Shown here piece by piece: positions 1 to 13,357 of a DNA stretch of 13,357 nucleotides; the stretch's first letter is position 1, and each line of letters starts with the position of its first letter. The position numbers and the translations under genes are program-made. The stretch is taken from assembly GCA_041489155.1 (NCBI GenBank), contig JBGPQP010000019.1, positions 1-13,357 on the forward strand. The letters are read 5' to 3'. The notes beneath the pieces were generated by a model. It was not told the DNA's origin. It ran no database searches and saw nothing but the letters and a program-made list of their open reading frames with translations. The DNA comes from Candidatus Aenigmatarchaeota archaeon (lineage in GTDB: Archaea; Aenigmatarchaeota; Aenigmatarchaeia; QMZP01; QMZT01).

Positions 1-2
1 AA

Positions 3-725
3 ATAGGTGTGCAAATTTTGGAAAATCCTATATTTTCACCAGCAAATAGTTTTGCTTTTGTTCCGGATAAAACCACTATTGTAGACGGTGGTGAGAAGAA
101 AGTTGATCTATGTATAGAGAAAAATATAATCGTTGGTAAAGAAATACAATTAGCTCAACAAAATCCAATAAATTGTGCTGGTAAATGGATGCTACCAGAC
201 ACGAAAAATCTTGAAACAAAAATAATTAAAAATATTCTAAAAGAAGAAATTCCAATTAAAGTTAAAGGAACAGGTCATATAGGAGAAAAAGCAACAATAA
301 CTGCAACTTATGAAGGTAAAACAAGCACTTTAAACACAACTGTTGTCCCAGAGCCATCTTTTGGTGGTCCATTTAGAGACATTAGACTATCGGGAAAGGA
401 TACAAAAAAGATTTCTGCTTTTATTGAAGAAGAAGGGATCCTTGAGATATACTACAAGCATTCTTTAATCAAAAAATATATGCGAAAAAACTTTAATAAT
501 AAACTCGATTTTTTAGTATTCGTCGCAGATATTATAACAAGAGAAGCGGTAAAAAGTGCGGTATTATCTGTAATCAAAGAAAGTTCGTCAAGATTTGCTA
601 TATTTAACTTTGACCACCCAGAACCAGAAATTGAAAATTATGTAATCACTGAATATTATGAACAGGGACCAAAAATGCACGAGATGTTCATAAAACTCGC
701 AAGAACATTCAAAATAGAAGAATAA
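3..725 (+). CDS. Hypothetical protein, probably 5'-truncated (C-terminal part of a larger protein, possibly GHKL/HtpG-like ATP-binding protein)
   Basis: The frame is open to the window edge (ATA GGT GTG...) and stops at TAA 723-725. AT-rich codon usage. ILEIYYKHSLIKKY resembles the LEINxxHPLI segment of Hsp90/GHKL C-terminal regions (weak). Confidence 0.7.
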   Translation: MGVQILENPIFSPANSFAFVPDKTTIVDGGEKKVDLCIEKNIIVGKEIQLAQQNPINCAGKWMLPDTKNLETKIIKNILKEEIPIKVKGTGHIGEKATITATYEGKTSTLNTTVVPEPSFGGPFRDIRLSGKDTKKISAFIEEEGILEIYYKHSLIKKYMRKNFNNKLDFLVFVADIITREAVKSAVLSVIKESSSRFAIFNFDHPEPEIENYVITEYYEQGPKMHEMFIKLARTFKIEE

Positions 726-830
726 TCTTAACGGCGGCGGCTTCTAGTTTATCGTCGAAAGAGGTGAGGCTGGCTATTGCGTTGAACAATCATTAAACGA
801 ATTTATTAATCGCCAATCACCTGCACCGGC

Positions 831-883
831 TTTGCCCAATAAGTAGCGTTTGCCTAAAAAGTCGGAATTCTGCCCAAAAAGTC
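831..883 (+). repeat. Three degenerate direct 15-bp repeats (TYTGCCYAAWAAGTM)
   Basis: 831 tttgcccaataagta; 849 tttgcctaaaaagtc; 869 tctgcccaaaaagtc (spacing 18 and 20 bp). Confidence 0.75.
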
Positions 884-941
884 CAATGTTTAAACAAATG
901 TATAAACATAATAATTTAAGCCAAATTTCGAATTCTAAATC

Positions 942-1073
942 ATGAAAGGAACAAATCCCTTCGAAGCCGTAGTAGTGGTAATAGTCGTAATAGTAATTAT
1001 TGCGATTGTTTTTGGCCTTTATTTCCCGCAATTCTGTGCTTCAACAGAAGCTCAAACGTGGCCCTGTAGCTAA
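942..1073 (+). CDS. 43-aa membrane microprotein with a class III (type IV pilin-like) signal peptide
   Basis: Manual translation MKGTNPFEAVVVVIVVIVIIAIVFGLYFPQFCASTEAQTWPCS*: KG| cleavage-like site, Glu at +5, about 20-aa hydrophobic stretch. AT-rich TATA-like elements at 889-920. Absent from the ORF track, probably because it is short. Confidence 0.65.
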   Translation: MKGTNPFEAVVVVIVVIVIIAIVFGLYFPQFCASTEAQTWPCS

Positions 1074-1102
1074 ATCATGCAGGGAAACCGTCCGAGGCTA
1101 AT

Positions 1103-1663
1103 ATGGGTAGGAAAACAACAGGCAAAAAGAAAATTACTGTTTTAGGAATTTCCGAAGAAGTTATTTTAAAGAAACCTAAAAACAAGAACGATTATTACGC
1201 GCAGAAACCTCCACTATCTCGAAATATACAAATGACGGAAAATTTTTTCACTTCGGATTATTTTACAGAAAAGGAAAGAGTGGCTATATTCCTGCACGAA
1301 TATTATCATAAAAATTCGGTCTTTTTAAAAGGAATAACGGTTCTTAACTTCTTGTATATTTCTTCAGCTAGTTCTATTGTAATATACTTTTTTCCTTATA
1401 GTTCTTTTCTTTACAATTTCATTTATATTCTGAGTGTTTTGATTATTGGTTTCATACTATTTTTAGCAATTACTACCCCGTTAAATAGAATAGAGGAGAG
1501 AGGTGCAGACGAATTTTCGGCAAAAAAAATAGATAAAGAAAATTTAATTTCTGCGCTTAAAAAATGTTATGCTATAAACAAGAGAGATGTTTTTTCTGAT
1601 TTTATTTATGATTGTTATCATTATCCAAAGGAAAAAAGATTGAAACATTTATCTTCGTTATAG
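1103..1663 (+). CDS. M48-family (HtpX/Ste24-like) membrane zinc metalloprotease
   Basis: HExxH (AIFLHEYYH), two hydrophobic helices, E-x-x-A-D motif (EERGADEFSA), C-terminal H-x-P-x-x-x-R-like motif (HYPKEKRL). Confidence 0.8.
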   Translation: MGRKTTGKKKITVLGISEEVILKKPKNKNDYYAQKPPLSRNIQMTENFFTSDYFTEKERVAIFLHEYYHKNSVFLKGITVLNFLYISSASSIVIYFFPYSSFLYNFIYILSVLIIGFILFLAITTPLNRIEERGADEFSAKKIDKENLISALKKCYAINKRDVFSDFIYDCYHYPKEKRLKHLSSL

Positions 1664-1692
1664 ATATTATATATTTCAAATGAGGGACAAGG

Positions 1693-2460
1693 ATGAAAAA
1701 CAACAACAATAAAATAAAGCAAGCCGTCCGTAAAAGATACTCGCGCTTCGCCAGAGATGGAACTAGCTGTTGTCCGACCTCGGCTTCTTGCTCTTGCAGT
1801 AACGCTGCCGTCCAAGCGAAGAAGATAGGCTATTCGAAAAAGGAGCTGGGGAAGATACCTAAAGAGGCGGTCATGGGTCTTGGCTGCGGGAATCCGACTG
1901 CGCTGGCCGGGCTTCGGAAGGGCGAGATTGTTCTGGACCTTGGAGCGGGCGCGGGGATCGACGTGTTCCTGGCCGCGGACAAAGTCGGATCGAAAGGCCG
2001 TGTCATAGGGGTTGACATGACGAAGGCGATGGTCGAGAAGGCGAACAGAACGGCGAAGAAGCACGGCTACAAAAACGTCGAATTCAGGCTCGGCGAGATT
2101 GAAAAACTCCCAGTCGAAGACGGCTCTGTCGATGTGATAATAAGCAACTGCGTGATTAATCTCTCCCCAGACAAGCTGCGCACGTACAGGGAAGCCCACA
2201 GGGTGCTGAAGCCGAATGGCAGAATTCTGATTTCTGATTTGGTGACAGAAGGCGAGCTGCCCGAAACAATCAAGAAAAACTTTGACGCCTGGGCGGGCTG
2301 CATAGCCGGCGCGCTGGAGAAAGGGAAATATCTGGACACGATAAAAAAGGCAGGCTTCAGGGACGTGAAAATCGTCTCCCAGAACACATATTCCGAAACC
2401 GGCCAGCATCGTTCGCTGGACGGAAAGATCACAAGCGTGAAAGTGAGCGCGCGCAAATGA
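1693..2460 (+). CDS. arsM: Arsenite S-adenosylmethionine methyltransferase
   Basis: SAM motif VLDLGAGAGID, GVDMT, ArsM cysteines in GLGCGNP, ISNCVINL and AGCIAGA, N-terminal SCC pair. SD-like GAGGG upstream. Confidence 0.93.
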   Translation: MKNNNNKIKQAVRKRYSRFARDGTSCCPTSASCSCSNAAVQAKKIGYSKKELGKIPKEAVMGLGCGNPTALAGLRKGEIVLDLGAGAGIDVFLAADKVGSKGRVIGVDMTKAMVEKANRTAKKHGYKNVEFRLGEIEKLPVEDGSVDVIISNCVINLSPDKLRTYREAHRVLKPNGRILISDLVTEGELPETIKKNFDAWAGCIAGALEKGKYLDTIKKAGFRDVKIVSQNTYSETGQHRSLDGKITSVKVSARK

Positions 2461-2470
2461 TATTGGCGAT

Positions 2471-2512
2471 TCATTCACCGACTAATTGTATAACTATCTC
2501 CCTCTCGCGCGG
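2471..2512 (-). pseudogene. Remnant 3' end of a yjbQ allele (13 codons plus stop)
   Basis: Minus strand reads PREREIVIQLVGE*, versus PREREVVVQIIGE* at the end of intact yjbQ (3185-3226). 33/42 nt identical, with 14 nt perfectly identical (2499-2512 = 3213-3226). Confidence 0.85.
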
Positions 2513-2574
2513 GAGCTTCCTCTCGGCCTTCAGGCTTTCGCTGCCATTTCAGGGGAAAGATGTAGGTGTTTGTG

Positions 2575-3072
2575 CTAGTCTACATCTGCACAGACAACGT
2601 AAATCTCCCACGGGTTCTTGCAGCAGGGCTGGCCTTCTTTACGGCAGTGGCATTCCCAGCCGTTTTGAGTGCCTGATAGCGGTCTTGTCCATAGGATGAA
2701 CTCGTTGTTCATGTTTTCGCAGTAGCACCCTCCGCCCAAGACCTTCTTATCATTTGATGAGCAGTAAACTGTCGTCGAGTTAAACACCTTTACTACTTCA
2801 TAGCCTGATAATCCTGTTGGGCCTGCTGGTCCCTGCGGACCCTGAGATCCCGTGACCCCTGTGTCTCCTTTAAGACCTTGCGGCCCTGCCAACCCCTGCG
2901 GACCCTGAGATCCCGTGACCCCTGTGTCTCCTTTAAGACCTTGCGGCCCTGCCAACCCCTGCGGACCTTGAGATCCTGCTTGTTGCACACATCCACTTAT
3001 CAAAACAACTCCAATTACAAGAGCTGCTAAAAGTGCTGGTGCCGGTAAATTTTTCATGTTCATTTTCATCAT
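2575..3072 (-). CDS. Collagen-like surface lipoprotein with an 8-Cys C-terminal domain
   Basis: Hydrophobic signal peptide ending in lipobox ISGC, about 20 uninterrupted Gly-X-Y triplets, C-terminal domain C..VLGGGCYC..GWECHC..CC..YVVC. G-rich SD-like site at 3083-3090. Confidence 0.85.
   Translation of the reverse strand: MMKMNMKNLPAPALLAALVIGVVLISGCVQQAGSQGPQGLAGPQGLKGDTGVTGSQGPQGLAGPQGLKGDTGVTGSQGPQGPAGPTGLSGYEVVKVFNSTTVYCSSNDKKVLGGGCYCENMNNEFILWTRPLSGTQNGWECHCRKEGQPCCKNPWEIYVVCADVD
2831..2976. repeat. 63-bp intragenic tandem repeat, about 2.3 copies (7 collagen triplets per unit)
   Basis: 2831-2893 and 2894-2956 are identical; the partial third copy 2957-2976 has 1 mismatch. Confidence 0.95.
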
Positions 3073-3184
3073 AATGTTTTAACCCCCCTTTATACATGGT
3101 TTATTCGATTTTTAAATAATTTACGAAATGTTTTGATTTTTAAAGGCGACTCGCAATTCGGGTTATAAAACGAACTTTTATCGT

Positions 3185-3610
3185 CTATTCCCCGATTATT
3201 TGTACCACTACTTCCCTCTCGCGCGGTCTTGTGTCAAAGTCGAGGAGCGCGATTTGCTGCCACGTGCCGAGGAGCAGGCGCTTGTTTTCGAATGGGACTG
3301 TGATGCTTGGCTTCATTAATGTCGCGCGCACGTGTGCGCTGCCGTTGTCGTCGCCCCAGGTTTCATGATGGTCGTATTTCGCGTTCTCTGGAGCGAGCTT
3401 TTCCAGCGTGCGTTTGATGTCTTTTATGAGATTGGGTTCATATTCGAGCGTTGATATGGAAGCGGTCGAGCCTACGACGAATACGCAGGCTATGCCATTC
3501 GCGATTTTCGATTTGTGGAGAATTTCTGCAATTTTGTTTGTGATGTCGACTATGTCTGTCCGGCCCTGGGTGCTTACCCGAATCCTGTGCGTCTCTGTCA
3601 TTGGCGGCAT
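3185..3610 (-). CDS. yjbQ: YjbQ / UPF0047 family protein (secondary thiamine-phosphate synthase)
   Basis: DIVDIT, GSTAS, YDHH..WGDDNGSAHVRA and LLLGTWQQI.LLDFD..PRER signature motifs. Confidence 0.92.
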   Translation of the reverse strand: MPPMTETHRIRVSTQGRTDIVDITNKIAEILHKSKIANGIACVFVVGSTASISTLEYEPNLIKDIKRTLEKLAPENAKYDHHETWGDDNGSAHVRATLMKPSITVPFENKRLLLGTWQQIALLDFDTRPREREVVVQIIGE

Positions 3611-3650
3611 AACATCTGTGAATTAATAGGAAGCAAGGAAATAATAAAAT

Positions 3651-4832
3651 ATGGATTCGCGAAATGAGCGCATGAATGTTGAAAATGCGGTGGATGCGCG
3701 GAAGCGCGAGATGATTTCGCTTCTTTCGAAGCTCATCGCTGCCAACACGTCAAATCCGCCAGGCAACGAATATCTGGCAGCGAATGTTGTGAAAAAGTTC
3801 TTCAGGAAAAACGCCATCAGGTACAAGGCCTTCGAGAAAGCGAAAGGCCGCGCTAACATTATAGGCTACATCGGAGAGGGAAGGCCGCGCCTGATTATTG
3901 CCTGCCACCTCGACACCGTGCCGCCGGGCAAGGGATGGGCGACTGACCCGTTCAAAGCGAAGGTGAAGGGAGGGAAGGTCTACGGCCGCGGAGCGGTCGA
4001 CAACAAGGGCCCTCTCGCCGGGATGCTCATCGCAGGGGCTGTCATGAAGAAGCTCGAGAAACGATTGAAAGGCCAGGTGATACTGGCATGCGTCGCAGAC
4101 GAGGAGCGCGGCTCGAAGCTCGGCATGCAGCATCTTCTGGAAGAAGGGAAGCTGCGCGGCGAATACGCGATTGTCCCGGACATCGAGCATGAACTGAAGA
4201 AAATCGATGTCGCCGAGAAAGGCCTGCTCTTCCTGGAGGTCACGTCCCTCGGCAGACAGGCGCACGGCTCCATGCCGGACCTAGGAGTAAATGCGGTTTG
4301 GAACATGATAGATTTCCTCGGGATTTTCAGGCGCTACAAAATGAAAGCGGGGAAGCATCCGCTGCTGTCCGCGCCTACCATCAACCTGGGAACGATAAAG
4401 GGCGGCGAAGCTCCGAACATCGTCCCGGACGAATGCACTGCGCGCATCGACATCCGCTACCTGCCGTCGCAGAAGGCGGAGGCGATAATAAGCGACGTCA
4501 GGAGGATGCTGGCCGCGGTTGAAAGAAGGAACAGGAAAGCGGAATTCAGGCTTGACGTTATCGATGATCAGAAGCCCGTCGAGGTCGATGGCGATAACGA
4601 GCTCGTCCGCTCGATAAGGAAAAACGTAAGAACTGTGACGAAGCACGACGCGGAGCTCATAGGCATCGCAGGGACGACGCTCGTCAAGCCGCTCGCGGCG
4701 AAAGGCATCAAGGCAGTCGGCTTCTCGCCGGGCGAGGGCCTCGCGCACACCTCGAACGAGAACATCTCGGTCAGCGAGCTTTCAGCCTTCGCAAAAATCC
4801 TCTGTCTCGTATGCCTCGACCTGCTGAGCTAA
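3651..4832 (+). CDS. M20-family metallopeptidase/deacylase (ArgE/DapE-like)
   Basis: NPPGNE, HLDTVP, GRGAVDNKG, DEERG, HGSMP..GVNA, PNIVP and AHTSNE motifs. Start may instead be ATG 3672. Confidence 0.92.
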   Translation: MDSRNERMNVENAVDARKREMISLLSKLIAANTSNPPGNEYLAANVVKKFFRKNAIRYKAFEKAKGRANIIGYIGEGRPRLIIACHLDTVPPGKGWATDPFKAKVKGGKVYGRGAVDNKGPLAGMLIAGAVMKKLEKRLKGQVILACVADEERGSKLGMQHLLEEGKLRGEYAIVPDIEHELKKIDVAEKGLLFLEVTSLGRQAHGSMPDLGVNAVWNMIDFLGIFRRYKMKAGKHPLLSAPTINLGTIKGGEAPNIVPDECTARIDIRYLPSQKAEAIISDVRRMLAAVERRNRKAEFRLDVIDDQKPVEVDGDNELVRSIRKNVRTVTKHDAELIGIAGTTLVKPLAAKGIKAVGFSPGEGLAHTSNENISVSELSAFAKILCLVCLDLLS

Positions 4833-4882
4833 AGGGATGGAGGGGTTAGCTTTATTAGCAACAATCAACAACATGTCAAAAA

Positions 4883-5473
4883 ATGATTCCTATGAAAATA
4901 CTTTGCGTTTCCGATTACCACAGGGACAAGGTCATCGCCGACAAGGTTGAGAAACTGGCGGCGAAGGAAAAGGTAGACGTTATTGTAAATGCCGGCGACT
5001 TCCTGTCGGAGGAATTCGCCAGGAAGGTTCTCGAGAACACGCAGTTCCGCACGTTCGTGGTGTGCGGCAACTGGGACCGCGAGCTGAAGGTGAGGAACAA
5101 GAAGGTTTCGTTTCTTATAAATCAAATTGTCGCATACAAGGGCTTCCACTTCCTCGGCGTCGACTGGGGCCATTACAGCGAGATAAAGAAGCTGGCGAAA
5201 GGCGTCGCATCCGACAAGCTTATTGTCATAAGCCACGACCCGCCCTACGACATCCTCGACGTCAGCTACTTCGGCAGCAACGCGGGCATGCCGGAACTGA
5301 GGGAAGCGATGGAGAACATAAAGCCTGCGATGCACGTCTTCGGCCACATACACGAATCCGCCGGCTTCATGATGCACAGGGGTACGCTTTATGTAAACGC
5401 GGCGCTGCCCGAATTCAGGAAAGCGGCGGTAGTCGAGCTGCCGCAAAAGAAGATAAAGGTTTTTGACGTCTGA
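4883..5473 (+). CDS. Calcineurin-like metallophosphoesterase
   Basis: SDYH, AGDF, GNWD, SHDPP and GHIHE motifs. Start may be ATG 4892 (MKILCVSD). Confidence 0.9.
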   Translation: MIPMKILCVSDYHRDKVIADKVEKLAAKEKVDVIVNAGDFLSEEFARKVLENTQFRTFVVCGNWDRELKVRNKKVSFLINQIVAYKGFHFLGVDWGHYSEIKKLAKGVASDKLIVISHDPPYDILDVSYFGSNAGMPELREAMENIKPAMHVFGHIHESAGFMMHRGTLYVNAALPEFRKAAVVELPQKKIKVFDV

Positions 5474-5666
5474 TTCCGAGCGCATCGAACCCACCGTCAG
5501 GTTTTTAAATAACGTTCATCATATTACGATAAAGTGATGTTATGTCCGGAATGATAAATTATTGGAAGAAGCGGATGGTTTTTGCTAGGCATAACGCGAT
5601 TTTTCATTGCACCGGCTTTTAATCGCGAACGCAGCTAGGGATTGCGTCCGCGTCATGGTGATTGTG

Positions 5667-5927
5667 ATGAGTCCAGAAAGCGAAATCGAGATAAAGGACA
5701 TGGAAGAGAAGGTAAGGAAGGTCGTACGGGAGGTCCTGAAAGAGGTCGACTTCGACCTAGAGGATCTCCTTGACAGCGGCAGGGATGAGCTGGAAGACCT
5801 GATAATGGAAGTAGTGCTTTCGCTTTTCGAGGACGACGACATCCCCTTCATCGAGCTGAGCCGCGCGGTTGAGGAAGACGATGTGGAAGCGCTGAAAGAC
5901 GATGACGGGAATTTCATGCTGAACTGA
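5667..5927 (+). CDS. Small, highly acidic hypothetical protein (86 aa)
   Basis: SD-like GGTGAT at 5657-5662 before ATG 5667. Codon usage like neighbouring genes. 31 D/E versus 9 K/R. Confidence 0.75.
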   Translation: MSPESEIEIKDMEEKVRKVVREVLKEVDFDLEDLLDSGRDELEDLIMEVVLSLFEDDDIPFIELSRAVEEDDVEALKDDDGNFMLN

Positions 5928-5997
5928 GGCGCCATGACTGAAATTAAATAACAGCTAAAACAAAATAATAATAAAGTGCTTGACATAGGCGATAAAA

Positions 5998-7290
5998 ATG
6001 CCAGAAAAAATAGAACTGATGAATGCGAGAGGAGTGAGGGACTTTTTGCCAGAGGAAGCGCTGGCGAGACAAAGAGCGATGGACACGATGCGCTCGGTCT
6101 TCGAGGCATACGGGTATTCGCCGCTCGAGACGCCGGCGATTGAAAGGAAGGACGTGCTCACCGCGAAGTTCGCAGGCGGCGCGGAGATAATGAACGAGAT
6201 ATTCAAGGTCGAGGACCAGGGCGGACGAGAACTCGCCTTGCGCTATGATTTGACCGTGCCGCTTTCGAAGGTCATGGGCATGAACCCCAATCTTCCGAAG
6301 CCTTTCAAGCGCTACCAGATGCAGCCAGTCTGGCGCGATGGTCCGGTGAAACTCGGCCGCTTCAGGGAGTTCATGCAGTGCGACGCGGACATCGTGGGAA
6401 CGAAATCGATGCTGGCCGACGCGGAGATTCTTGCGATTGCTGCCGAAATCTTCGAGAGGCTGGGCCTGAGCATTGTGATAAAGGTCAACAACCGCAAGCT
6501 CATGAACGGCATCCTCGATTACGCGGGCATAAAGGAAAAGAAGATGGAGGCTATCCTGGCGATAGACAAGCTGGAGAAGTTCGGAGCAGAAGCAGTGGAG
6601 AAAGAGCTCGCCGACAAGGGCATCGGCAAAAAGGAGACTGAGGCTGTGCTGAAGGTCATGTCAATCAAGGGCAGGAACGATGAAATCCTCGAAAAGCTTG
6701 GGACGATGCTGAAGTCGGATGAGGGGAAGGAGGGAGCGAAAGAGCTGAAAGAGCTGCTCGGATATTGCGAAGCGATGGACATTGATGTAAAACTCGATGT
6801 CTCGCTGGCGAGAGGGCTGGAGTATTACACGGGGCCGGTCTACGAGGTTTTCCTTAAGAGTTCGAAGATCACGTCGTCCGTCGCAGGCGGCGGACGCTAC
6901 GACAAGATGATAGGCATGTTTATAGGACGCGGGGAATACCCGGCGACAGGGATTTCCTTCGGCGTCGAGCCGATTTTCGAGGCGCTGAAAGAAAAGGGAA
7001 GCGCCGCTCCCAAAACGAACACGCAGGTCCTCGTCATTCCCATAGGCACGCTCAAAGAAGCGCTGCCGATAGCCAGGAAGCTCAGGGACCAGGGCATAAG
7101 GACCGAAATAGACATCATGGACCGCGGCATTTCGGCGAATCTCAATTACGCCAATTCGCTCGGCATTCCTTACGTCGTGTTCTTCGGCAACGAGGAGATG
7201 AAGCATGGCAAGGTCAAGCTGCGCGACATGAAATCAGGCAAGGAAAAGCTTATAGAAGCCGAAAAGGCAGGCCAGGAAATCACTGACTAA
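5998..7290 (+). CDS. hisS: Histidine--tRNA ligase
   Basis: RGVRDFLP, LRYDLTVP, WRDGPVKLGRFREFMQCDADIVG, LARGLEYYTG, GGGRYD and a C-terminal anticodon-binding domain. Confidence 0.98.
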   Translation: MPEKIELMNARGVRDFLPEEALARQRAMDTMRSVFEAYGYSPLETPAIERKDVLTAKFAGGAEIMNEIFKVEDQGGRELALRYDLTVPLSKVMGMNPNLPKPFKRYQMQPVWRDGPVKLGRFREFMQCDADIVGTKSMLADAEILAIAAEIFERLGLSIVIKVNNRKLMNGILDYAGIKEKKMEAILAIDKLEKFGAEAVEKELADKGIGKKETEAVLKVMSIKGRNDEILEKLGTMLKSDEGKEGAKELKELLGYCEAMDIDVKLDVSLARGLEYYTGPVYEVFLKSSKITSSVAGGGRYDKMIGMFIGRGEYPATGISFGVEPIFEALKEKGSAAPKTNTQVLVIPIGTLKEALPIARKLRDQGIRTEIDIMDRGISANLNYANSLGIPYVVFFGNEEMKHGKVKLRDMKSGKEKLIEAEKAGQEITD

Positions 7291-7359
7291 TGTTTTTAAA
7301 CCCGGCTTCACAATAAAAAAAGATAGCTGCTGGTTATAGTACAAAAAGAGGTTGATAAA

Positions 7360-9195
7360 ATGGTAATGAACAGCATACGCAACATAGCGAGCCCGGTCGC
7401 GCGGACGTTCGTCCCGGACACTTCCATTCTGATAAACAGGAAGCTTTCCGAGCTCATAGAAAGCGGGAAGCTTGACAACTCGAAGATAGTCATACCGCGC
7501 CTCGTGATTGACGAGCTCCAGGCGCAGGCTTCCAGGGGGAAGGACATCGGTTTTCGCGGGCTTGACGAGATAAAGAAGATACGAGCCGCCTGCGAGAAGC
7601 ACAAGATCAAGCTTTCATTCACTGGCGAGCGTCCGACGCAGGAGGACATAAGCCTCGCGAAGAAGGGACGTTTGGATGCGCTCATCCGCGACTTCGCCGT
7701 CAAGGAGAACGCCACGCTTCTGACCAGCGATTATGTGCAGGCGCTCGTTGGAGAGGCGGAGAACGTCGCCGTGAGCTACATTCCTTATGACATAAGCCAG
7801 AAGACGATAAAGATCGAAGGCTTTTTCACGCCGGACACGCAATCCGTCCACCTGAAAGCGGGGGTAAGGCCTTACGCCAAGAAGGGCAAGCCTGGCGAGG
7901 TCAGGCTCGTCCACCTGCGGGAAAAACTGATGGACGAGGAAGAGCTCAAGGCTATAACGTACGAGATCCTTTCGAAGACCCACCGCGACCCGAGCTCGTT
8001 CATAGAGATAGGCAAGCAGGGAGCGAGCGCGATAGTCGTGCAGATGGGGCGTTACAGAATCGCCATCACCAGGCCGCCGTTTTCCTCGGCGGCTGAAGTC
8101 ACGGCAGTAAGGCCGATCGTAAAGCTCGAACTGAAAGACTACAGGCTGCACAAGGACCTCGAGGAAATGATAGTTTCTGAATCAAAAGGAATCCTCATAG
8201 CAGGCCCGCCCGGCTCGGGCAAGTCAACCTTCGCTGGTAGCGTCGCTGACTTCCTTTCGAAGAAAGGCAAGGTCGTCAAGACCTTCGAGCAACCGAGGGA
8301 TCTCCAGGTCGGCCCGGAGATAACACAATACGCGCCGCTTGAGAACGACTGGGAGAAGACGGCGGAGCTGCTGCTTCTCGTCAGGCCCGATTACACAATT
8401 TTCGACGAGGTGCGCAAGACGAAGGATTTCCGCGTCTTCGCGGACATGCGCCTCGCCGGCGTCGGGATGATAGGCGTCGTGCATGCGACGGACATCATCT
8501 CCGCGATACAGAGGTTCATGGGACGCATCGAACTGGGCATGATCCCTCACGTGGTCGACACGGTGATTTACATAAAGAACGGCGTGGTGGAAAGGATTTA
8601 CACGCTCGGCCTGCTCGTTAAAGTTCCGAGTGGCATGATCGAGGCGGACCTTGCCAGACCCGTCGTTGAAGTGCGCGATTTCGAGACTAAACGCTTAGAA
8701 TACGAGATATACACCTTCGGCGAAGAGAACGTCGTCATTCCAATAAAAGAAGCGCCGAAACCTCTGAGAGACAAGGTCATGAAAATCATACTGAACGAAC
8801 TGGGAACGGTGGACAAGGACCTAGAAGTCGAGTTCCTTTCCGACAGCCGCGTCCTGCTGCGCGTGAGGAACGAGATCATCCCCAAGGTCATCGGCAGGAA
8901 AGGCCAGAACATCGAGGAGCTCGAGAGGAAGACGGGCATAAACATATCGGTCGAGCCGAGGGAAAGGACGCTGAAGGAGGAAATCAAATACCTGTTCGGC
9001 GAAAGGGGCTCGTCCTTCAACATAAAGATCGAGAAGAAATTCGCAGGCAAGCAGATCGATTTATACGACGGTGATGAATATCTCTTCTCGCCCGTGGTGG
9101 GCAGGGAAGGCGAGATCTGGGTCAAGAAGCGCTCAAGCGAGGGAGAAAAAATACTGCGCGCTGCCAGCTCGAGAACGCTGAAAGTGATGGTCTGA
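7360..9195 (+). CDS. PINA: PIN-domain / VirB11-like ATPase / KH-domain protein (archaeal Holliday-junction branch-migration ATPase family)
   Basis: PIN motif VPDTS..IN, Walker A GPPGSGKST, LLLVRPDYTIFDEVR, RLAGVGMIGVVHA, KH motif IPKVIGRKG. Confidence 0.93.
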   Translation: MVMNSIRNIASPVARTFVPDTSILINRKLSELIESGKLDNSKIVIPRLVIDELQAQASRGKDIGFRGLDEIKKIRAACEKHKIKLSFTGERPTQEDISLAKKGRLDALIRDFAVKENATLLTSDYVQALVGEAENVAVSYIPYDISQKTIKIEGFFTPDTQSVHLKAGVRPYAKKGKPGEVRLVHLREKLMDEEELKAITYEILSKTHRDPSSFIEIGKQGASAIVVQMGRYRIAITRPPFSSAAEVTAVRPIVKLELKDYRLHKDLEEMIVSESKGILIAGPPGSGKSTFAGSVADFLSKKGKVVKTFEQPRDLQVGPEITQYAPLENDWEKTAELLLLVRPDYTIFDEVRKTKDFRVFADMRLAGVGMIGVVHATDIISAIQRFMGRIELGMIPHVVDTVIYIKNGVVERIYTLGLLVKVPSGMIEADLARPVVEVRDFETKRLEYEIYTFGEENVVIPIKEAPKPLRDKVMKIILNELGTVDKDLEVEFLSDSRVLLRVRNEIIPKVIGRKGQNIEELERKTGINISVEPRERTLKEEIKYLFGERGSSFNIKIEKKFAGKQIDLYDGDEYLFSPVVGREGEIWVKKRSSEGEKILRAASSRTLKVMV

Positions 9196-9207
9196 ATTTC
9201 GTTCTAG

Positions 9208-10545
9208 CTACATGCCGCCTGCCATGCCGAACTGCTTCGCGAGTTTCGCGAATGGGCCGCGCTTGAAGGCCTTGCCGCCGCCCGCCATCTTGAGCAGCTT
9301 CTTTATCTGCTCGTAGTTCTTGATGAGTTCCCTGACCTCGGCCTGCGTCGTGCCCGAGCCTTTCGCGATTCTCTGGATGCGCGACTGCTTGATTATTTCA
9401 GGGTCCTCGCGCTCCTCTTTCGTCATCGAGCTGATCATGTGCTTCCACTTCTTCATCTTCCCCTCTTGTACGTCGGCGAAGTTTTCCGGCAGCTTCTTCC
9501 TGAGCGCTCCGCCGGAGAAGCCAGGGATCATGTCCATCACCTTCGACATCGAGCCCATCTTCTGCAGCGAGCCGAGCTGCTCGTAGAACTCGTTCATGGT
9601 GAAGCGGCCCTCAATGATTTTTTTCGCTGACTCTTCCGCTCCGGACTCTTTCGCCTTCTCGAGCAGGCCCTGCAGGTCGCCGTAGCCTATTAGCCGCGAG
9701 AAGAAGCGCTGCGGGTCGTATTCCTCGAAGTCACCTATCTTTTCTCCGACGCCGATCATGCGCACGTTCGAGCCGGAAACAGTCGAAGCAGCAAGTGCGC
9801 CGCCTCCTTTCGCCGTCCCGTCGAGCTTGGAAACTATGAGGCCGGTTATGCCGACGAGCTTGTTGAACTCCTCGGCCTGCCTGCGCGCGGCCTGGCCGAT
9901 GTCCGCGGGTATGACGAGGAAGACTTCGCTGGGCCTTATGATCTCGCCGAGCTTCCTCAGCTCCTTCGCGAGCTCGCCGTCTAGCGCGTCTCTTCCCGCG
10001 GTGTCGAATATGAGGACGTTCTCCTTCGCCTCTTTCAGAGCGTGCTTGGCGATGTCTTCGGGCTTATTGCCTTCTGAATAAACAGGGACTTCTATCTGCC
10101 TGCCTATCTGCCTCAGCTGCTCCTGCGCAGCTGCTCGATGAGTGTCGCATGCGATCAGCGCGACTGAGAGGCCGCGCTTCTTGAACCAGAAGCCAAGTTT
10201 GCCGGCGGTCGTAGTCTTGCCCGAGCCGAAAAGGCCGATGAGCAGTATGCGCTGGTCCGCCAGGGAAAGCTTCCCCTTTTCTTTGCCCAGCATGGCGACT
10301 ATCTCGTCATAGAGCGTCTTGATGAAGAATTCCTTGAGCGTCATGCCCTTCGGCGTCTCTTTGAGGACGCGATCCTTTATGTTCTGCGTTATCTTGAAGA
10401 CCAGCTTGACATCTACGTCGGACTGGATGAGTGTGCGCTGCAGGTCGCGGAGTATCGCTTCCACCGCTGCCTTGTCAACCACGCCGAGGCCCATGACCCT
10501 GCGAAATACGTCCTTTATGCCCGAGCCGAATTTATCCAAAGCCAT
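9208..10545 (-). CDS. srp54: Signal recognition particle protein SRP54
   Basis: GSGKTTT, DTHRAAA, DTAGR, KLDGTAKGGG, GVGEKI; Met-rich M domain with SMT.EER..P and SRIQRIAKGSG. Confidence 0.97.
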   Translation of the reverse strand: MALDKFGSGIKDVFRRVMGLGVVDKAAVEAILRDLQRTLIQSDVDVKLVFKITQNIKDRVLKETPKGMTLKEFFIKTLYDEIVAMLGKEKGKLSLADQRILLIGLFGSGKTTTAGKLGFWFKKRGLSVALIACDTHRAAAQEQLRQIGRQIEVPVYSEGNKPEDIAKHALKEAKENVLIFDTAGRDALDGELAKELRKLGEIIRPSEVFLVIPADIGQAARRQAEEFNKLVGITGLIVSKLDGTAKGGGALAASTVSGSNVRMIGVGEKIGDFEEYDPQRFFSRLIGYGDLQGLLEKAKESGAEESAKKIIEGRFTMNEFYEQLGSLQKMGSMSKVMDMIPGFSGGALRKKLPENFADVQEGKMKKWKHMISSMTKEEREDPEIIKQSRIQRIAKGSGTTQAEVRELIKNYEQIKKLLKMAGGGKAFKRGPFAKLAKQFGMAGGM

Positions 10546-10594
10546 TTTATCGCCTTTCCCGCTCCATGCGGTGAGATTATAATAGATTCATGGT

Positions 10595-10608
10595 TTTTAT
10601 ATATAAAA
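10595..10608 (-). promoter_or_regulatory. Putative TATA box for srp54 (perfect 14-bp palindrome TTTTATATATAAAA)
   Basis: About 50 bp upstream of the srp54 ATG; matches archaeal TTTAWA(T)A consensus. Confidence 0.55.
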
Positions 10609-10645
10609 CAGGCACAGGGAGGCATCTAGGCAGGCCTAGCTAACG

Positions 10646-10662
10646 AAAATAAAAAACAAAAA
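10646..10662 (-). terminator. Oligo-T archaeal terminator downstream of the RDD gene
   Basis: Minus strand TTTTTGTTTTTTATTTT starts about 14 nt after the stop codon. Confidence 0.6.
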
Positions 10663-10675
10663 GCGGAGGGAAGAA

Positions 10676-11131
10676 TCAAGCCCTCACTACAACGGTTTTT
10701 GCAGCAATGTCGCCTATCCTCTGCTTCTTCTCCGAGACCAGCACCACTATGAAGCCGAGCAGGTACACCGCGAGGCCGTCGATCATCCTGAGTATCGTCC
10801 TCAGGAAGGCTTCGGCGAAAGTCAGTTTCTTGCCGTCTTCCCTGACGACCTTTATGTTCACCATCTTCTTGCCGAGCGTTTGTCCAGTCGTGCTCTCGAA
10901 GTATGTGAAGTAAAGGATCCATATCACAAGGCTTATGACTACTAATGTGCTCATCAGGGCCATAACCGAAGCGAGGGTCACAGGATTGGCTACGCTGCCC
11001 ATTATGGAGAAGAGCGCACTGGTCATGCCGAAGGGAAGCGTTATGACCATCGTTATTATCATCAGTATGATGTGGTCTGTTATCACTGCGATAGCCCTGC
11101 TGCCGATACCCGCATAATCCTCTTTTGCCAT
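10676..11131 (-). CDS. RDD-family membrane protein (151 aa)
   Basis: YAGIGSRAIAVITD, GQTLGKK.VNIKVV, LR...R.ID and KQRIGDIAAKTVVV. GGAGGT SD supports the start at 11131 rather than 11293. Confidence 0.92.
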   Translation of the reverse strand: MAKEDYAGIGSRAIAVITDHIILMIITMVITLPFGMTSALFSIMGSVANPVTLASVMALMSTLVVISLVIWILYFTYFESTTGQTLGKKMVNIKVVREDGKKLTFAEAFLRTILRMIDGLAVYLLGFIVVLVSEKKQRIGDIAAKTVVVRA

Positions 11132-11216
11132 ACACCCAACCTCCGTTTTATATTGATTATTATTTTTGAACGGCCGCCTTAAAAACAGCAATATGCCTGG
11201 GTTCATGAAAAATGAG

Positions 11217-11243
11217 AAATAGAAAGAAAACAAAAAACAAAAA
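11217..11243 (-). terminator. Oligo-T archaeal terminator downstream of the SWIB-like gene
   Basis: Minus strand TTTTTGTTTTTTGTTTTCTTTCTATTT about 10 nt after the stop codon. Confidence 0.6.
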
Positions 11244-11253
11244 TCCGTCGCGT

Positions 11254-11409
11254 TTACCTGCCTGCGAGTCTCTTGCTCTTGACAACTACCCACAGTTTCT
11301 TTGTCATCTCGCTTGGCGTTATCTTGCCCTTGCCGAAAACGTCTTCAAGTGTTTCCTTCCTTCCGGCAAAACAAATCGTATAACCACCAAATGCTTTCTT
11401 CGCCGCCAT
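11254..11409 (-). CDS. 51-aa basic protein resembling half of a SWIB/MDM2 domain
   Basis: MAAKKAFGGYTICFAGRKETLEDVFGKGKITPSEMTKKLWVVVKSKRLAGR: L..VFG...I.PSEMTKKLW..VK...L matches the SWIB L..F.G....R.EV.K.LW.YIK...L pattern. SD AGGGGTG, upstream TATA-like elements and its own terminator. Confidence 0.75.
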   Translation of the reverse strand: MAAKKAFGGYTICFAGRKETLEDVFGKGKITPSEMTKKLWVVVKSKRLAGR

Positions 11410-11516
11410 AATTACACCCCTTAAAATTTTATAATAATGTTTGCGCATTCTGATTTATATATGTTTAGAGGGGAATTTTCGCAAACCGCGCTCGGGTAAA
11501 AGCCACTCCCGCCAGC

Positions 11517-11578
11517 TTTGTGTAATAAGTACCGATAAAGGGCGACTTAATACACAGAAAGGGGACTTTTTACACAGA
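11517..11578. repeat. Three copies of a 15-bp motif (one + strand, two - strand) forming an inverted plus 20-bp tandem arrangement
   Basis: 11517(+) tttgtgtaataagta; 11558-11544(-) tctgtgtattaagtc; 11578-11564(-) tctgtgtaaaaagtc. Confidence 0.75.
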
Positions 11579-13225
11579 ATCAACATTGAATTTGCCCACC
11601 GAAAAAACCCCGTTTTTGACCGTCTTGTTTGCCGAGAACGAGGACATATCGTCCGTCAGATACCATCTGAGCTTGTCCTTTCCCAGAGGGAAATAAACTT
11701 CCCTTGCAATTCCTTGCCTTGAGGTAATTATGAACGACAGTTCGGGGAGGGCGCCGAACGGCATCCCTTTGGTTTCAAGGTACTGACTTATCGGAACGCT
11801 GGTATTCGTTTCAGGTTTCATCAGATTGATGCTGCCTTCATTCCTTTCTGAGGACAAGCTCTTCTGGTCAACGACGAACACCTTCTTGTCTCTTATGTCT
11901 TGGAATGTCGGACAGCCCCTTCTCATGGAGCATAGGCTGCATGAAAGCGGGTTGGGCTTCCTGTTCTGGAGATCCTCTGAGTGAAGGATTCCAGTCTTGA
12001 CGCAGAACAGGATGTCGTTGAAGAACGGTTGATTTGTCTTCCTCAGTTGCGCACTGTTCCAAATGAGCCTCTCGAATTTCCCCAGATTGTTTCCTGAGGT
12101 TGGAATCTCCTCCGCCGGGGTCTGGAAGAGCTCCTCGAAGAATGATGTCACCCATGTGTCGACGGGTATACAGTCGTACCTCTTGAACGCCTGCTGGAGG
12201 AAGCATCCAAGAACCTTCGGATAGATGCCGCGGGGAGGGTCTTCGTATATTCCGGCGTAATCTTGGAGGGTCAGTCTGCGGAAGTCGAAACCCTTGAAAA
12301 GATTGTAGAAGTACGTGAGGAAGACGAATGGTCTCTGGTAGTTCCTGTTGAAGTCCTCCTTTATCTGCGTTATCAGCTGGCGTGTCCTTGCGCTGAGGGG
12401 TTCCATCAGCGCGTCCCAAGAACCTTCCTTGTTGGGTATGCCCTTCTCGGCATCCAATAGGTACATGGTCTGCTCCTGAAGTGCGAATTCTTTCGTGAGA
12501 TGCTTGTTGCCGTATTCCATTAGGGCCCTGCGGAAGTTCAGAAAACTCTCGAAATCATCATACCTCCCTGCCAGCAGCTCGTCGTAGGTGGGGAGCAGCC
12601 AAAGATTGATGCATTCGCCTGCAGGGGGGCTGCCCACCCTCTTTCCTATCGTCTGCAGCACGTTGCTGATCATTATGTATTCCTGCTTCCTGCCTCCAGG
12701 CGTGTTCCAAGCCGCAACGAAGCGTACGATTCCGTATAGCTCCGGGTAAAACTGCCCGCACGGGATTTTGGATCCGTAGTATTTTTCAAGCCTCGGAAAA
12801 ATGAGTTCCACTATCCTCTCCCACTTCTTGTGCCTTTCCGACCGGGTCCCGTCGGGAGAGCGGCAGCACTCCTTGAGGCGTTCAAGCGTCATCGCCTCGG
12901 AAAGCCCCAGCCTTTCCCTCATCTCATTTCCGAACAGTTCGTTCAGCCTTGTATTATCTGAAAGGTTGACATTGGAGAGGATGCGAACCCTCAGGGTGCA
13001 CTCCTCTCCGTGTCGCCTCTCGACTGAATGGCTGATTGGTACGCCGAAAACCCTCTGCCCGCCATGGATGAAGTGGATGCTTTTCAGCGGGAAGCCCGGC
13101 AGTTCCGGATCGAAGAAGTCAAGCAGGGAGACCCATCTCAGGGGGAAGCCCGGCATTGATATCTCACACTCATGCCTAAGCGAAAATTCGTCTGCCATCA
13201 TGTACAAAATTAATGTGGACGTCAT
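11570..13225 (-). CDS. Large HhH-GPD superfamily DNA glycosylase-like protein with a putative Fe-S cluster
   Basis: GIYPKVLGCFLQQAF..DCIPVDTWV parallels the OGG1/EndoIII GVGPKVA.C..L.A....PVD motif, with catalytic K and D retained. Cys pattern C-x20-C-x2-C-x5-C. Start may be 13201 or 13198. Confidence 0.65.
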   Translation of the reverse strand: MTSTLILYMMADEFSLRHECEISMPGFPLRWVSLLDFFDPELPGFPLKSIHFIHGGQRVFGVPISHSVERRHGEECTLRVRILSNVNLSDNTRLNELFGNEMRERLGLSEAMTLERLKECCRSPDGTRSERHKKWERIVELIFPRLEKYYGSKIPCGQFYPELYGIVRFVAAWNTPGGRKQEYIMISNVLQTIGKRVGSPPAGECINLWLLPTYDELLAGRYDDFESFLNFRRALMEYGNKHLTKEFALQEQTMYLLDAEKGIPNKEGSWDALMEPLSARTRQLITQIKEDFNRNYQRPFVFLTYFYNLFKGFDFRRLTLQDYAGIYEDPPRGIYPKVLGCFLQQAFKRYDCIPVDTWVTSFFEELFQTPAEEIPTSGNNLGKFERLIWNSAQLRKTNQPFFNDILFCVKTGILHSEDLQNRKPNPLSCSLCSMRRGCPTFQDIRDKKVFVVDQKSLSSERNEGSINLMKPETNTSVPISQYLETKGMPFGALPELSFIITSRQGIAREVYFPLGKDKLRWYLTDDMSSFSANKTVKNGVFSVGKFNVDSV

Positions 13226-13239
13226 TAAAAGGATACATT

Positions 13240-13290
13240 TACCATGGAAATTGAGCTTATATGTGAAAAAACCATGGTATTTTTAAATAC
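13240..13290. promoter_or_regulatory. Divergent promoter region with inverted repeat TACCATGG/CCATGGTA and TATA-like boxes
   Basis: taccatgg 13240-13247 and ccatggta 13272-13279; TTATAT near 13257; GTATTT-tt-AAATAC 13277-13290 containing TTTTTAAA. Confidence 0.45.
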
Positions 13291-13321
13291 GGCTGTCAAT
13301 TTAGACTTGGAGGTCAAAAAT

Positions 13322-13357
13322 ATGAAAAAATACAAAGTAATATCCATAATCAACATG
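13322..13357 (+). CDS. 5' fragment of a probable ParA/Soj-family ATPase (runs off the window)
   Basis: GGAGGT SD upstream. MKKYKVISIINM matches the ParA start M.K.IS..NMKGGVGKTT, but the Walker A itself lies outside the window. Confidence 0.6.
   Translation, partial: MKKYKVISIINM

Follow-up and report, generated by a model that had tools for sequence, protein, structure and literature searches.

Two clusters of a repeated 15-mer in an archaeal contig are very probably the ends of two different IS903-like cargo transposons

The window analysed here is the whole 13,357-bp contig C19 of the archaeal genome assembly G000 (1.13 Mb in 39 contigs, 89.65% complete), and it carries two clusters of a repeated 15-mer, beginning at positions 831 and 11517. 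The two clusters are very probably the ends of two different IS903-like (IS5-family) DDE cargo transposons, and the sequence of the repeated 15-mers makes it likely that they are binding sites of the elements’ DDE transposase. Each array opens with a terminal unit, (G/A)GCTTTG-NNN-A(A/T)(A/T)AAGT, which is of the IS903 inverted-repeat type, and the other units of the array repeat its inner part. In the following, C numbers denote contigs of G000, G numbers genomes, L numbers related loci and X numbers metagenome runs; coordinates of the features in the window are collected in Table 1.

The 15-mer pattern TYTGYSYAWWAAGTM occurs six times in the window with no mismatches, at 831, 849, 869 and 11517 on the forward strand and at 11544 and 11564 on the reverse strand, exactly as an initial annotation of the contig had listed them; its statement that no further copies are present also held, as a search allowing one mismatch added none. 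Dinucleotide shuffles (n = 200) contained 0.12 copies on average and two at most, and six in none. The units are spaced 18 and 20 bp apart in cluster 1 and 27 (start to start, across strands) and 20 bp apart in cluster 2, and the 20-bp spacing claimed for both clusters is therefore present in each. A recount by hand returned the same likenesses between the flanks that had been reported, 19/25 and 15/18. When the scan was extended to the 1.13-Mb assembly, as the initial annotation had proposed, the strict pattern gave 8 matches, compared with one for a reversed-pattern control, and every one lay within a cluster: the six window copies and two more at C15:15895-15927. With a looser pattern, extra triplets of 18 + 20 spacing appeared at C4:92435-92486 and C15:15876-15927, as well as a cluster of mixed orientation at C15:15013-15075. 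All 8 strict matches in the assembly sit at element ends.

These ends are of two kinds. In a D end, direct units lie at offsets 6, 24 and 44 from the terminus; in an H end, a terminal unit at offset 6 is followed by inverted units at 32 and 52 (sometimes at 70 too), or by an inverted unit at 32 and a direct unit at 55. Seven of eight paired elements combine one D end with one H end, and in the eighth the D end is paired with an end of one unit. Of the two window clusters, the first is of D type and the second of H type, which explains the +,+,+ and +,-,- orientations seen at the outset. Only the ends (823-897 and 11499-11579) are alike in the window and related loci, and the interiors vary by locus. 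For cluster 1, blastn likeness to other ends starts at 828 in six of nine listed matches and at 823-825 in the other three, and stops at 864-897; for cluster 2, three of four distinct loci show likeness from 11512-11515 onwards and the fourth from 11499.

Outside the termini, paired elements carry 9-bp target-site duplications. The outer 9-mers are identical (9/9) in six elements (C15:15008-15930, L026, L030, the two stacked in L031, and the element with ends at C4:92432 and C19:11514) and agree at 8/9 positions in L017 and L024, and the sequence of the duplication differs at every site. The pairs of ends in L025 and L027 were also considered as single elements; their outer 9-mers mismatch, and they were read as ends of different elements and excluded from the duplication count.

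In the case of cluster 2, the partner D end lies at C4:92432, and both ends are flanked by GGCGGGAGT. With a slash at the element boundary, the C4 sequence reads ...AAAGCTTTC GGCGGGAGT / GGCTTTGTGTA..., and the reverse strand of C19 reads ...TACACAAAGCT / GGCGGGAGT GGCTTTTACCC.... The empty sites in genomes G086 and G087 read ...AAAGCTTTC-N9-GGCTTTTA..., with a single 9-mer where G000 has 9-mer, element and 9-mer, and in G088 the two flanks are joined, about 30 bases apart. Positions 11210-11504 of the window are 79-82% identical in all four congeners, three of which have the empty site and no cluster. The break in synteny at cluster 2 is thus an insertion between flanks that adjoin in three congeners, and the paired ends together with these joined flanks indicate that cluster 2 is one end of an element of more than 4.4 kb, split across two contig ends. 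Both alleles are found in metagenome run X3, where one contig crosses the cluster-2 terminus (depth 3.5) and a single 45-nucleotide (nt) record at depth 2 runs from 11513 directly into the 15 bases preceding the C4 duplication, which is present in single copy. Because X3 holds both, the insertion is polymorphic in nature, the empty allele being known from this one short record. On the other side, a 3705-nt contig of run X1 runs past position 13357.

The C4 part of this element consists of the D end, a gene with a product resembling ribbon-helix-helix (RHH) proteins, a gene of 278 amino acids (aa) and, at the contig end, a transposase gene, which is the only IS903-like transposase gene in the G000 assembly. 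Its product matches Pfam DDE_Tnp_1 at 1.5e-23, passing the cut-off, and the IS5-family NCBIfam model NF033579 is the best model for all four transposases compared (that of C4 and three relatives), with scores of 99-139 bits that stay under the model’s 140-bit cut-off. The L026 transposase, which is 58% identical to that of C4, shows 29% identity over 89% of the query to annotated IS903 transposases (tblastn, plasmids). In L026 and L030 the transposase genes lie inside the elements without inverted repeats of their own, and the best inverted repeat in L030 is the element’s own 24-nt terminus; in L023 the transposase gene stops 14 bases before a terminus. The gene points from the D end towards the H end in all three autonomous copies. 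Among 91 genomes of the order, the transposase gene is present in 14 and the direct triplet in 13 (20 places; control matches, zero), and 7 of 18 transposase loci have a terminus within their 1.5-kb flanks, with six different cores. The L030 transposase (L030:4925-6172, on G066:C30) is extended at its N-terminus by about 100 aa, which match a SWIM zinc finger weakly (E 0.0014), and several relatives in the order are in likewise long open frames (399-460 aa, and one of 554).

Terminal and inner units co-vary in their core triplet (positions 8-10). In 74 of 105 distinct ends the terminal unit and the one after it have the same triplet, compared with 16.2 ends on average and 29 at most in 2000 shuffles, a figure that is not a probability and that counts ends across relatives which are not independent.

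The DDE_Tnp_1/IS5-type transposase, the terminal inverted repeat of IS903 type (GGCTTTG...AATAA...) and the 9-bp target-site duplication, which is seen in paired elements, mini-elements and empty sites, place these elements with the IS903 group of the IS5 family. The target duplications of IS903 are likewise 9 bp long. The IS903 copy on plasmid CP123678.1 ends GGCTTTGTTGAATAAATCAG, and an excerpt of one paper quotes the IS903 repeat as GGCTTTGTTGAATA (PMC8477213); the window termini, GGCTTTGCCCAATAAGTA and AGCTTTGTGTAATAAGTA, belong to this type and differ mainly at positions 8-10. In the IS903 copy that was read (L153, left end truncated), there is a single unit within three mismatches, whereas the elements described here have two to four units per end and a fixed D/H asymmetry. 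Unlike IS903, the present elements bear passenger genes or no transposase, range from 57 bp to more than 4.4 kb and have mostly archaeal hosts. They depart from a strict insertion sequence, which has transposition genes only and short single inverted repeats; given the passenger genes, the transposase-less copies and the several units per end, they are better called unit (cargo) transposons and their miniature inverted-repeat transposable elements (MITEs).

The layout of the ends may also be likened to that of Tn7 (TnsB), Mu (MuA), the inverted and direct repeats (IR/DR) of Tc1/mariner elements and the subterminal repeats of hAT elements, as all would have several phased transposase sites per end, cleavage at the outermost site alone and two unlike ends. 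In Tn7, Mu and some eukaryotic transposons, multi-site ends help assemble and orient the synaptic complex. Asymmetry of Tn7-like ends is described in part of a recent preprint (10.64898/2026.07.09.737429). The present elements differ from Tn7 and Mu in transposase family and in the 9-bp length of the duplication here, and no TnsB- or MuA-type genes were found in the open reading frames (ORFs) scanned for domains, which comprised three sets of 20 from the window, C4, C15 and four other loci.

In a scan of one genome per species, the stacked-end architecture was found elsewhere at no fewer than 120 loci, mostly archaeal. About 62 of the 80 matches listed are archaeal by title and 17 bacterial, and the archaeal hosts among them include Woese-, Pace-, Nano- and Hadarchaeota, Methanosarcinales, Methanoperedens, Nitrososphaera, Micrarchaeota and others. 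As for viral carriers, 2.9 million viral contigs gave one match. Within the at least 120 loci there are 21 candidate mini-elements (57-324 bp) from Nitrososphaera, Methanocellaceae, Woese- and Nanoarchaeota and one Chloroflexia bacterium, ten of them with perfect 9-bp duplications and three with one mismatch. Elements of 57, 66 and 86 bp that consist of units alone, with no gene, carry perfect 9-bp duplications (e.g., L070, L092 and L120 at 57 bp, and L056, L066, L084 and L150 at 86 bp, from Woese- and Nanoarchaeota, Nitrososphaera and Methanocellaceae). The 86-bp form is composed of three direct units and one inverted terminal unit, a layout equal to that of an H end. These 57-86-bp gene-free copies with 9-bp duplications resemble MITEs, but here the mini-element is purely a stack of units, and the H end of the full elements has the whole mini-element layout.

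We propose a mechanism in which the DNA-binding domain of the transposase would occupy every unit and cleavage would take place at the terminal unit only, as the sole unit bearing the GGC tip. Assembly and orientation of the synaptic complex may be aided by the inner units and by the D/H asymmetry, and the 3-bp core may determine the transposase subfamily by which an end is recognised. The elements would move by cut-and-paste, with target cuts staggered by 9 bp as in IS903. A wider interpretation is offered tentatively, as one that we find plausible but would not yet call probable: the elements would form an undescribed branch of IS903 relatives across both domains, made up of unit transposons and 57-86-bp mini-elements of binding sites only, in which transposase sites are stacked asymmetrically at the ends and subfamilies are kept apart by a 3-bp ‘address’ inside each site. 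Since an H end is laid out like an entire mini-element, cargo may then be captured through pairing of a D end with the outer terminus of an adjacent mini-element or stacked copy. If true, this would be a simple way for small-genome archaea to build and exchange gene islands.

The inner units might instead have a reader of their own, with the terminal unit bound by transposase and the inner units by a small element-encoded DNA-binding protein that regulates transposition or the passengers. The RHH-like product on C4 could be such a protein, since its 83-aa ORF lies 25 bp from the D end; its translation reads RHH-like, and its sole family match is weak (CdrS model, E 0.002). An HTH_3 gene also lies inside the array region of G019. 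In the L026 and L030 elements, however, no RHH or HTH family was called, and the only matches to DNA binders were weak ones to Csa3 (E 0.0004) and zf-AN1. This alternative is made less likely by the gene-free mini-elements, which still have perfect duplications, and by the inner units themselves, which copy the inner part of the terminal inverted repeat and have a common core triplet with it; we consider it unlikely. Far more doubtful is the suggestion of the initial annotation that the clusters are operators through which one host regulator controls two adjacent microprotein genes. By position, each cluster does lie 60-130 bp upstream of a small ORF, beside AT-rich DNA, but the two relations differ, in that the 43-aa ORF at 942 is inside an element and the gene at 11254-11448 is outside one and conserved. 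For cluster 2 the suggestion fails because this small gene and its upstream DNA are conserved in congeners in which the site is empty. The arrays on C4 and C15, moreover, face the 3’ ends of genes, and arrays throughout accompany duplications, transposase genes and variable cargo; with every strict genome match at an element end, we did not find sites that are tied to promoters independently of mobile DNA.

The same annotation had alternatively seen the clusters as recombinase or transposase arrays marking the ends of islands that extend out of the window. Here the general idea stood, as the 9-bp duplications, empty sites and internal DDE transposase place the arrays at the ends of transposable elements, and the cluster-2 element does leave the window. 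The families that it named (integrase, TnsB and IS21) did not: none is present in the scanned ORFs, the transposase is of IS5/IS903 type and the terminus is IS903-like. Several phased sites per end and unlike ends do resemble Tn7 and Mu and would suit either Tn7-, Mu- or IS21-type end arrays or the arm-type sites of a tyrosine or serine integrase. Against this, the scanned ORFs contained neither an integrase nor an rve (TnsB/MuA) or IstA/IstB domain, the termini are inverted and flanked by a 9-bp duplication with no shared att core, and the internal transposase belongs to DDE_Tnp_1/IS5, which leaves these systems a shade less credible even than the operators. At the bottom of the scale we place iterons of an integrated plasmid or virus replication origin, which direct repeats about two helical turns apart beside AT-rich DNA might suggest; none of the scanned ORFs was a Rep gene, viral contigs yielded the single match mentioned above, arrays lie at both ends of the inserts with 9-bp duplications, and the empty site contradicts iterons.

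Several points weigh against the interpretation of the two clusters as ends of IS903-like cargo transposons. The transposases differ from the IS5/IS903 group in falling just below the NCBIfam cut-off, the ends behind the triplet co-variation are related to one another, and binding of the inner units by the transposase is predicted from their sequence alone. The middle of the cluster-2 element is unassembled, no overlap having been found between the C4 and C19 contig ends, and the empty-site contig of X3 is one record. For cluster 1, no convincing partner end was found as an inverted terminus with up to three mismatches in C19 and the start of C2, nor by eye at 1500-1800 or 2440-3240; the 9-mer ACCTGCACC outside its terminus occurs once in the contig and has no second copy, the C2 start included; and four metagenome runs contained no cluster-1 empty-site allele over 1-3400, where one loose end at 828 belongs to the C15 copy. 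Finally, ends of CCC/CAC type have no cognate transposase in the 89.65%-complete assembly.

Table 1. Features of the window (contig C19, 13,357 bp) at and around the two clusters
Feature	Position	Strand	Remarks
9 bp ACCTGCACC	819..827	+	directly outside the cluster-1 terminus; expected place of a duplication copy
D-type end (cluster 1)	828..885	+	terminus GGC 828-830; direct units 831-845, 849-863 and 869-883; cores CCC, CCT and CCC; interior rightwards
43-aa hydrophobic ORF	942..1073	+	first ORF inside the cluster-1 element; passenger gene
186-aa membrane ORF	1103..1663	+	HEYYH (HExxH-type) motif; GC 0.29-0.35; likely passenger gene
Small conserved host gene, 64 aa from first ATG	11254..11448	-	outside the element; adjoins the insertion site
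Target-site duplication copy	11505..11513	-	GGCGGGAGT on the - strand; second copy at C4:92423-92431
H-type end (cluster 2)	11514..11578	+	terminus AGC 11514-11516; terminal unit 11517-11531 (+); inverted units 11544-11558 and 11564-11578 (-); all cores TGT; interior rightwards
551-aa passenger gene	11570..13225	-	stop codon overlaps the innermost unit
Element interior	13226..13357	.	continues beyond the contig, in the direction of the unassembled middle and C4

Cluster 1 is the end of a second subfamily, with core CCC, that has no transposase of its own in the assembly. As no transposase of CCC/CAC type is present there, the cluster-1 copy and the 923-bp element on C15 appear to be non-autonomous, and cluster 1 may have been truncated or be an orphan end. 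Position 828 is spanned by contigs from three metagenome runs, which shows that the junction is real and not an assembly artefact. The terminus at 828 faces right, opposite to the direction that had been assumed, and thus the 43-aa and 186-aa genes lie inside the element and the ORF to the left lies outside. The 43-aa ORF has no Pfam match and no paralogue, and it is not conserved beside related ends. No Pfam or NCBIfam match was found for the 186-aa ORF; from its HEYYH motif, it is possibly a small HExxH metalloprotease.

The description of both clusters as lying next to accessory DNA proved correct, since positions 1-827 have no match in any of the four congeners and the 551-aa gene lies within the cluster-2 insertion. 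Around cluster 1, conserved gene order with the four congeners begins only near 3190 and not at 885, where the initial annotation had proposed to look for a break; of the four, G087 alone has a match to 1664-2700, and that match is on another contig. Gene order places the start of C19 next to the start of C2, and window positions 1-3185 together with G000:C2:1-1787 appear to be specific to the G000 genome. Guanine-cytosine content (GC) is 0.28-0.36 in C19:1-1690 and C2:1-500, compared with about 0.5-0.57 in the core. This loss of synteny shows that cluster 1 is an end within a variable island. Within the same region, a 165-aa ORF at 2575-3072 on the reverse strand matches the collagen triple-helix repeat (Pfam Collagen, 3.2e-10) and contains a duplicated stretch of about 60 bp at 2830-2960, and it is absent from three of the four congeners.

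The 551-aa passenger of the cluster-2 element has no match in Pfam, NCBIfam or PADLOC and no paralogue, and a protein atlas gave nothing but unnamed clusters, at 0.88-0.89, and a weak lead to HhH-GPD. Directly behind the transposase gene, an ORF at C4:94985-95029 starts MNKLFAMIDLFAGIG, which we take to resemble motif I of C5 DNA methyltransferases and which may hint at restriction-modification cargo; Pfam DNA_methylase was not found elsewhere in the G000 assembly.

A literature search, which reached few subscription journals and did not cover ISfinder, found no description of IS903-like archaeal cargo transposons or of stacked IS903-group ends. In part of its text, a 2019 survey of thaumarchaeal mobile elements states that passenger-gene transposons were not detected in archaea (PMC6563490), and an excerpt of a survey of archaeal insertion sequences makes no mention of IS903 or cargo (PMC13343696). 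The D/H asymmetry, the triplet co-variation, the mini-elements of binding sites only and the empty-site allele are new. A relative of a textbook bacterial insertion sequence would here move whole genes, and probably a module of restriction-modification type, in tiny symbiont-type archaea; it is also present in many archaeal phyla and some bacteria. Stacked asymmetric ends with a co-varying triplet provide a testable model of how a simple DDE transposase might tell left from right and its own ends from foreign ones. In practice, such ends explain contig breaks and variable islands in metagenome-assembled genomes of this kind, and they offer a sequence signature for accessory DNA.

Some further copies and sites were observed. 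The element at C15:15008-15930 is a complete non-autonomous element of 923 bp with the duplication CGGTTTTGC and one 237-aa gene, and it is located between an eIF2-gamma gene and a CYTH-domain gene. Stacks of two elements, tail to head and with one 9-bp duplication in common, were seen at L031:953-3132 (G082:C27; CGCCTCAAC) and at L023:6699-6710 (G019:C2; GGTCCTGGG). Insertion beside a resident end was considered as a rule of the family, given the AAAGCC-N9-GGCTTTG junction; AAAGCY-N9-terminus was found at 3 of 118 ends elsewhere, which indicates that such insertion is occasional and not general. The host flank beside the cluster-2 insertion site (11485-11504, and the empty sites in G086:C3 and G087:C35) begins GGCTTTTA(C/A)CC, which is terminus-like and conserved in congeners, and this flank may be a relic end. 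In genomes G000, G084, G089 and G082, different elements occupy one and the same position, which follows G(C/G)TTTC and lies between the genes for eIF2-alpha and SRP54.

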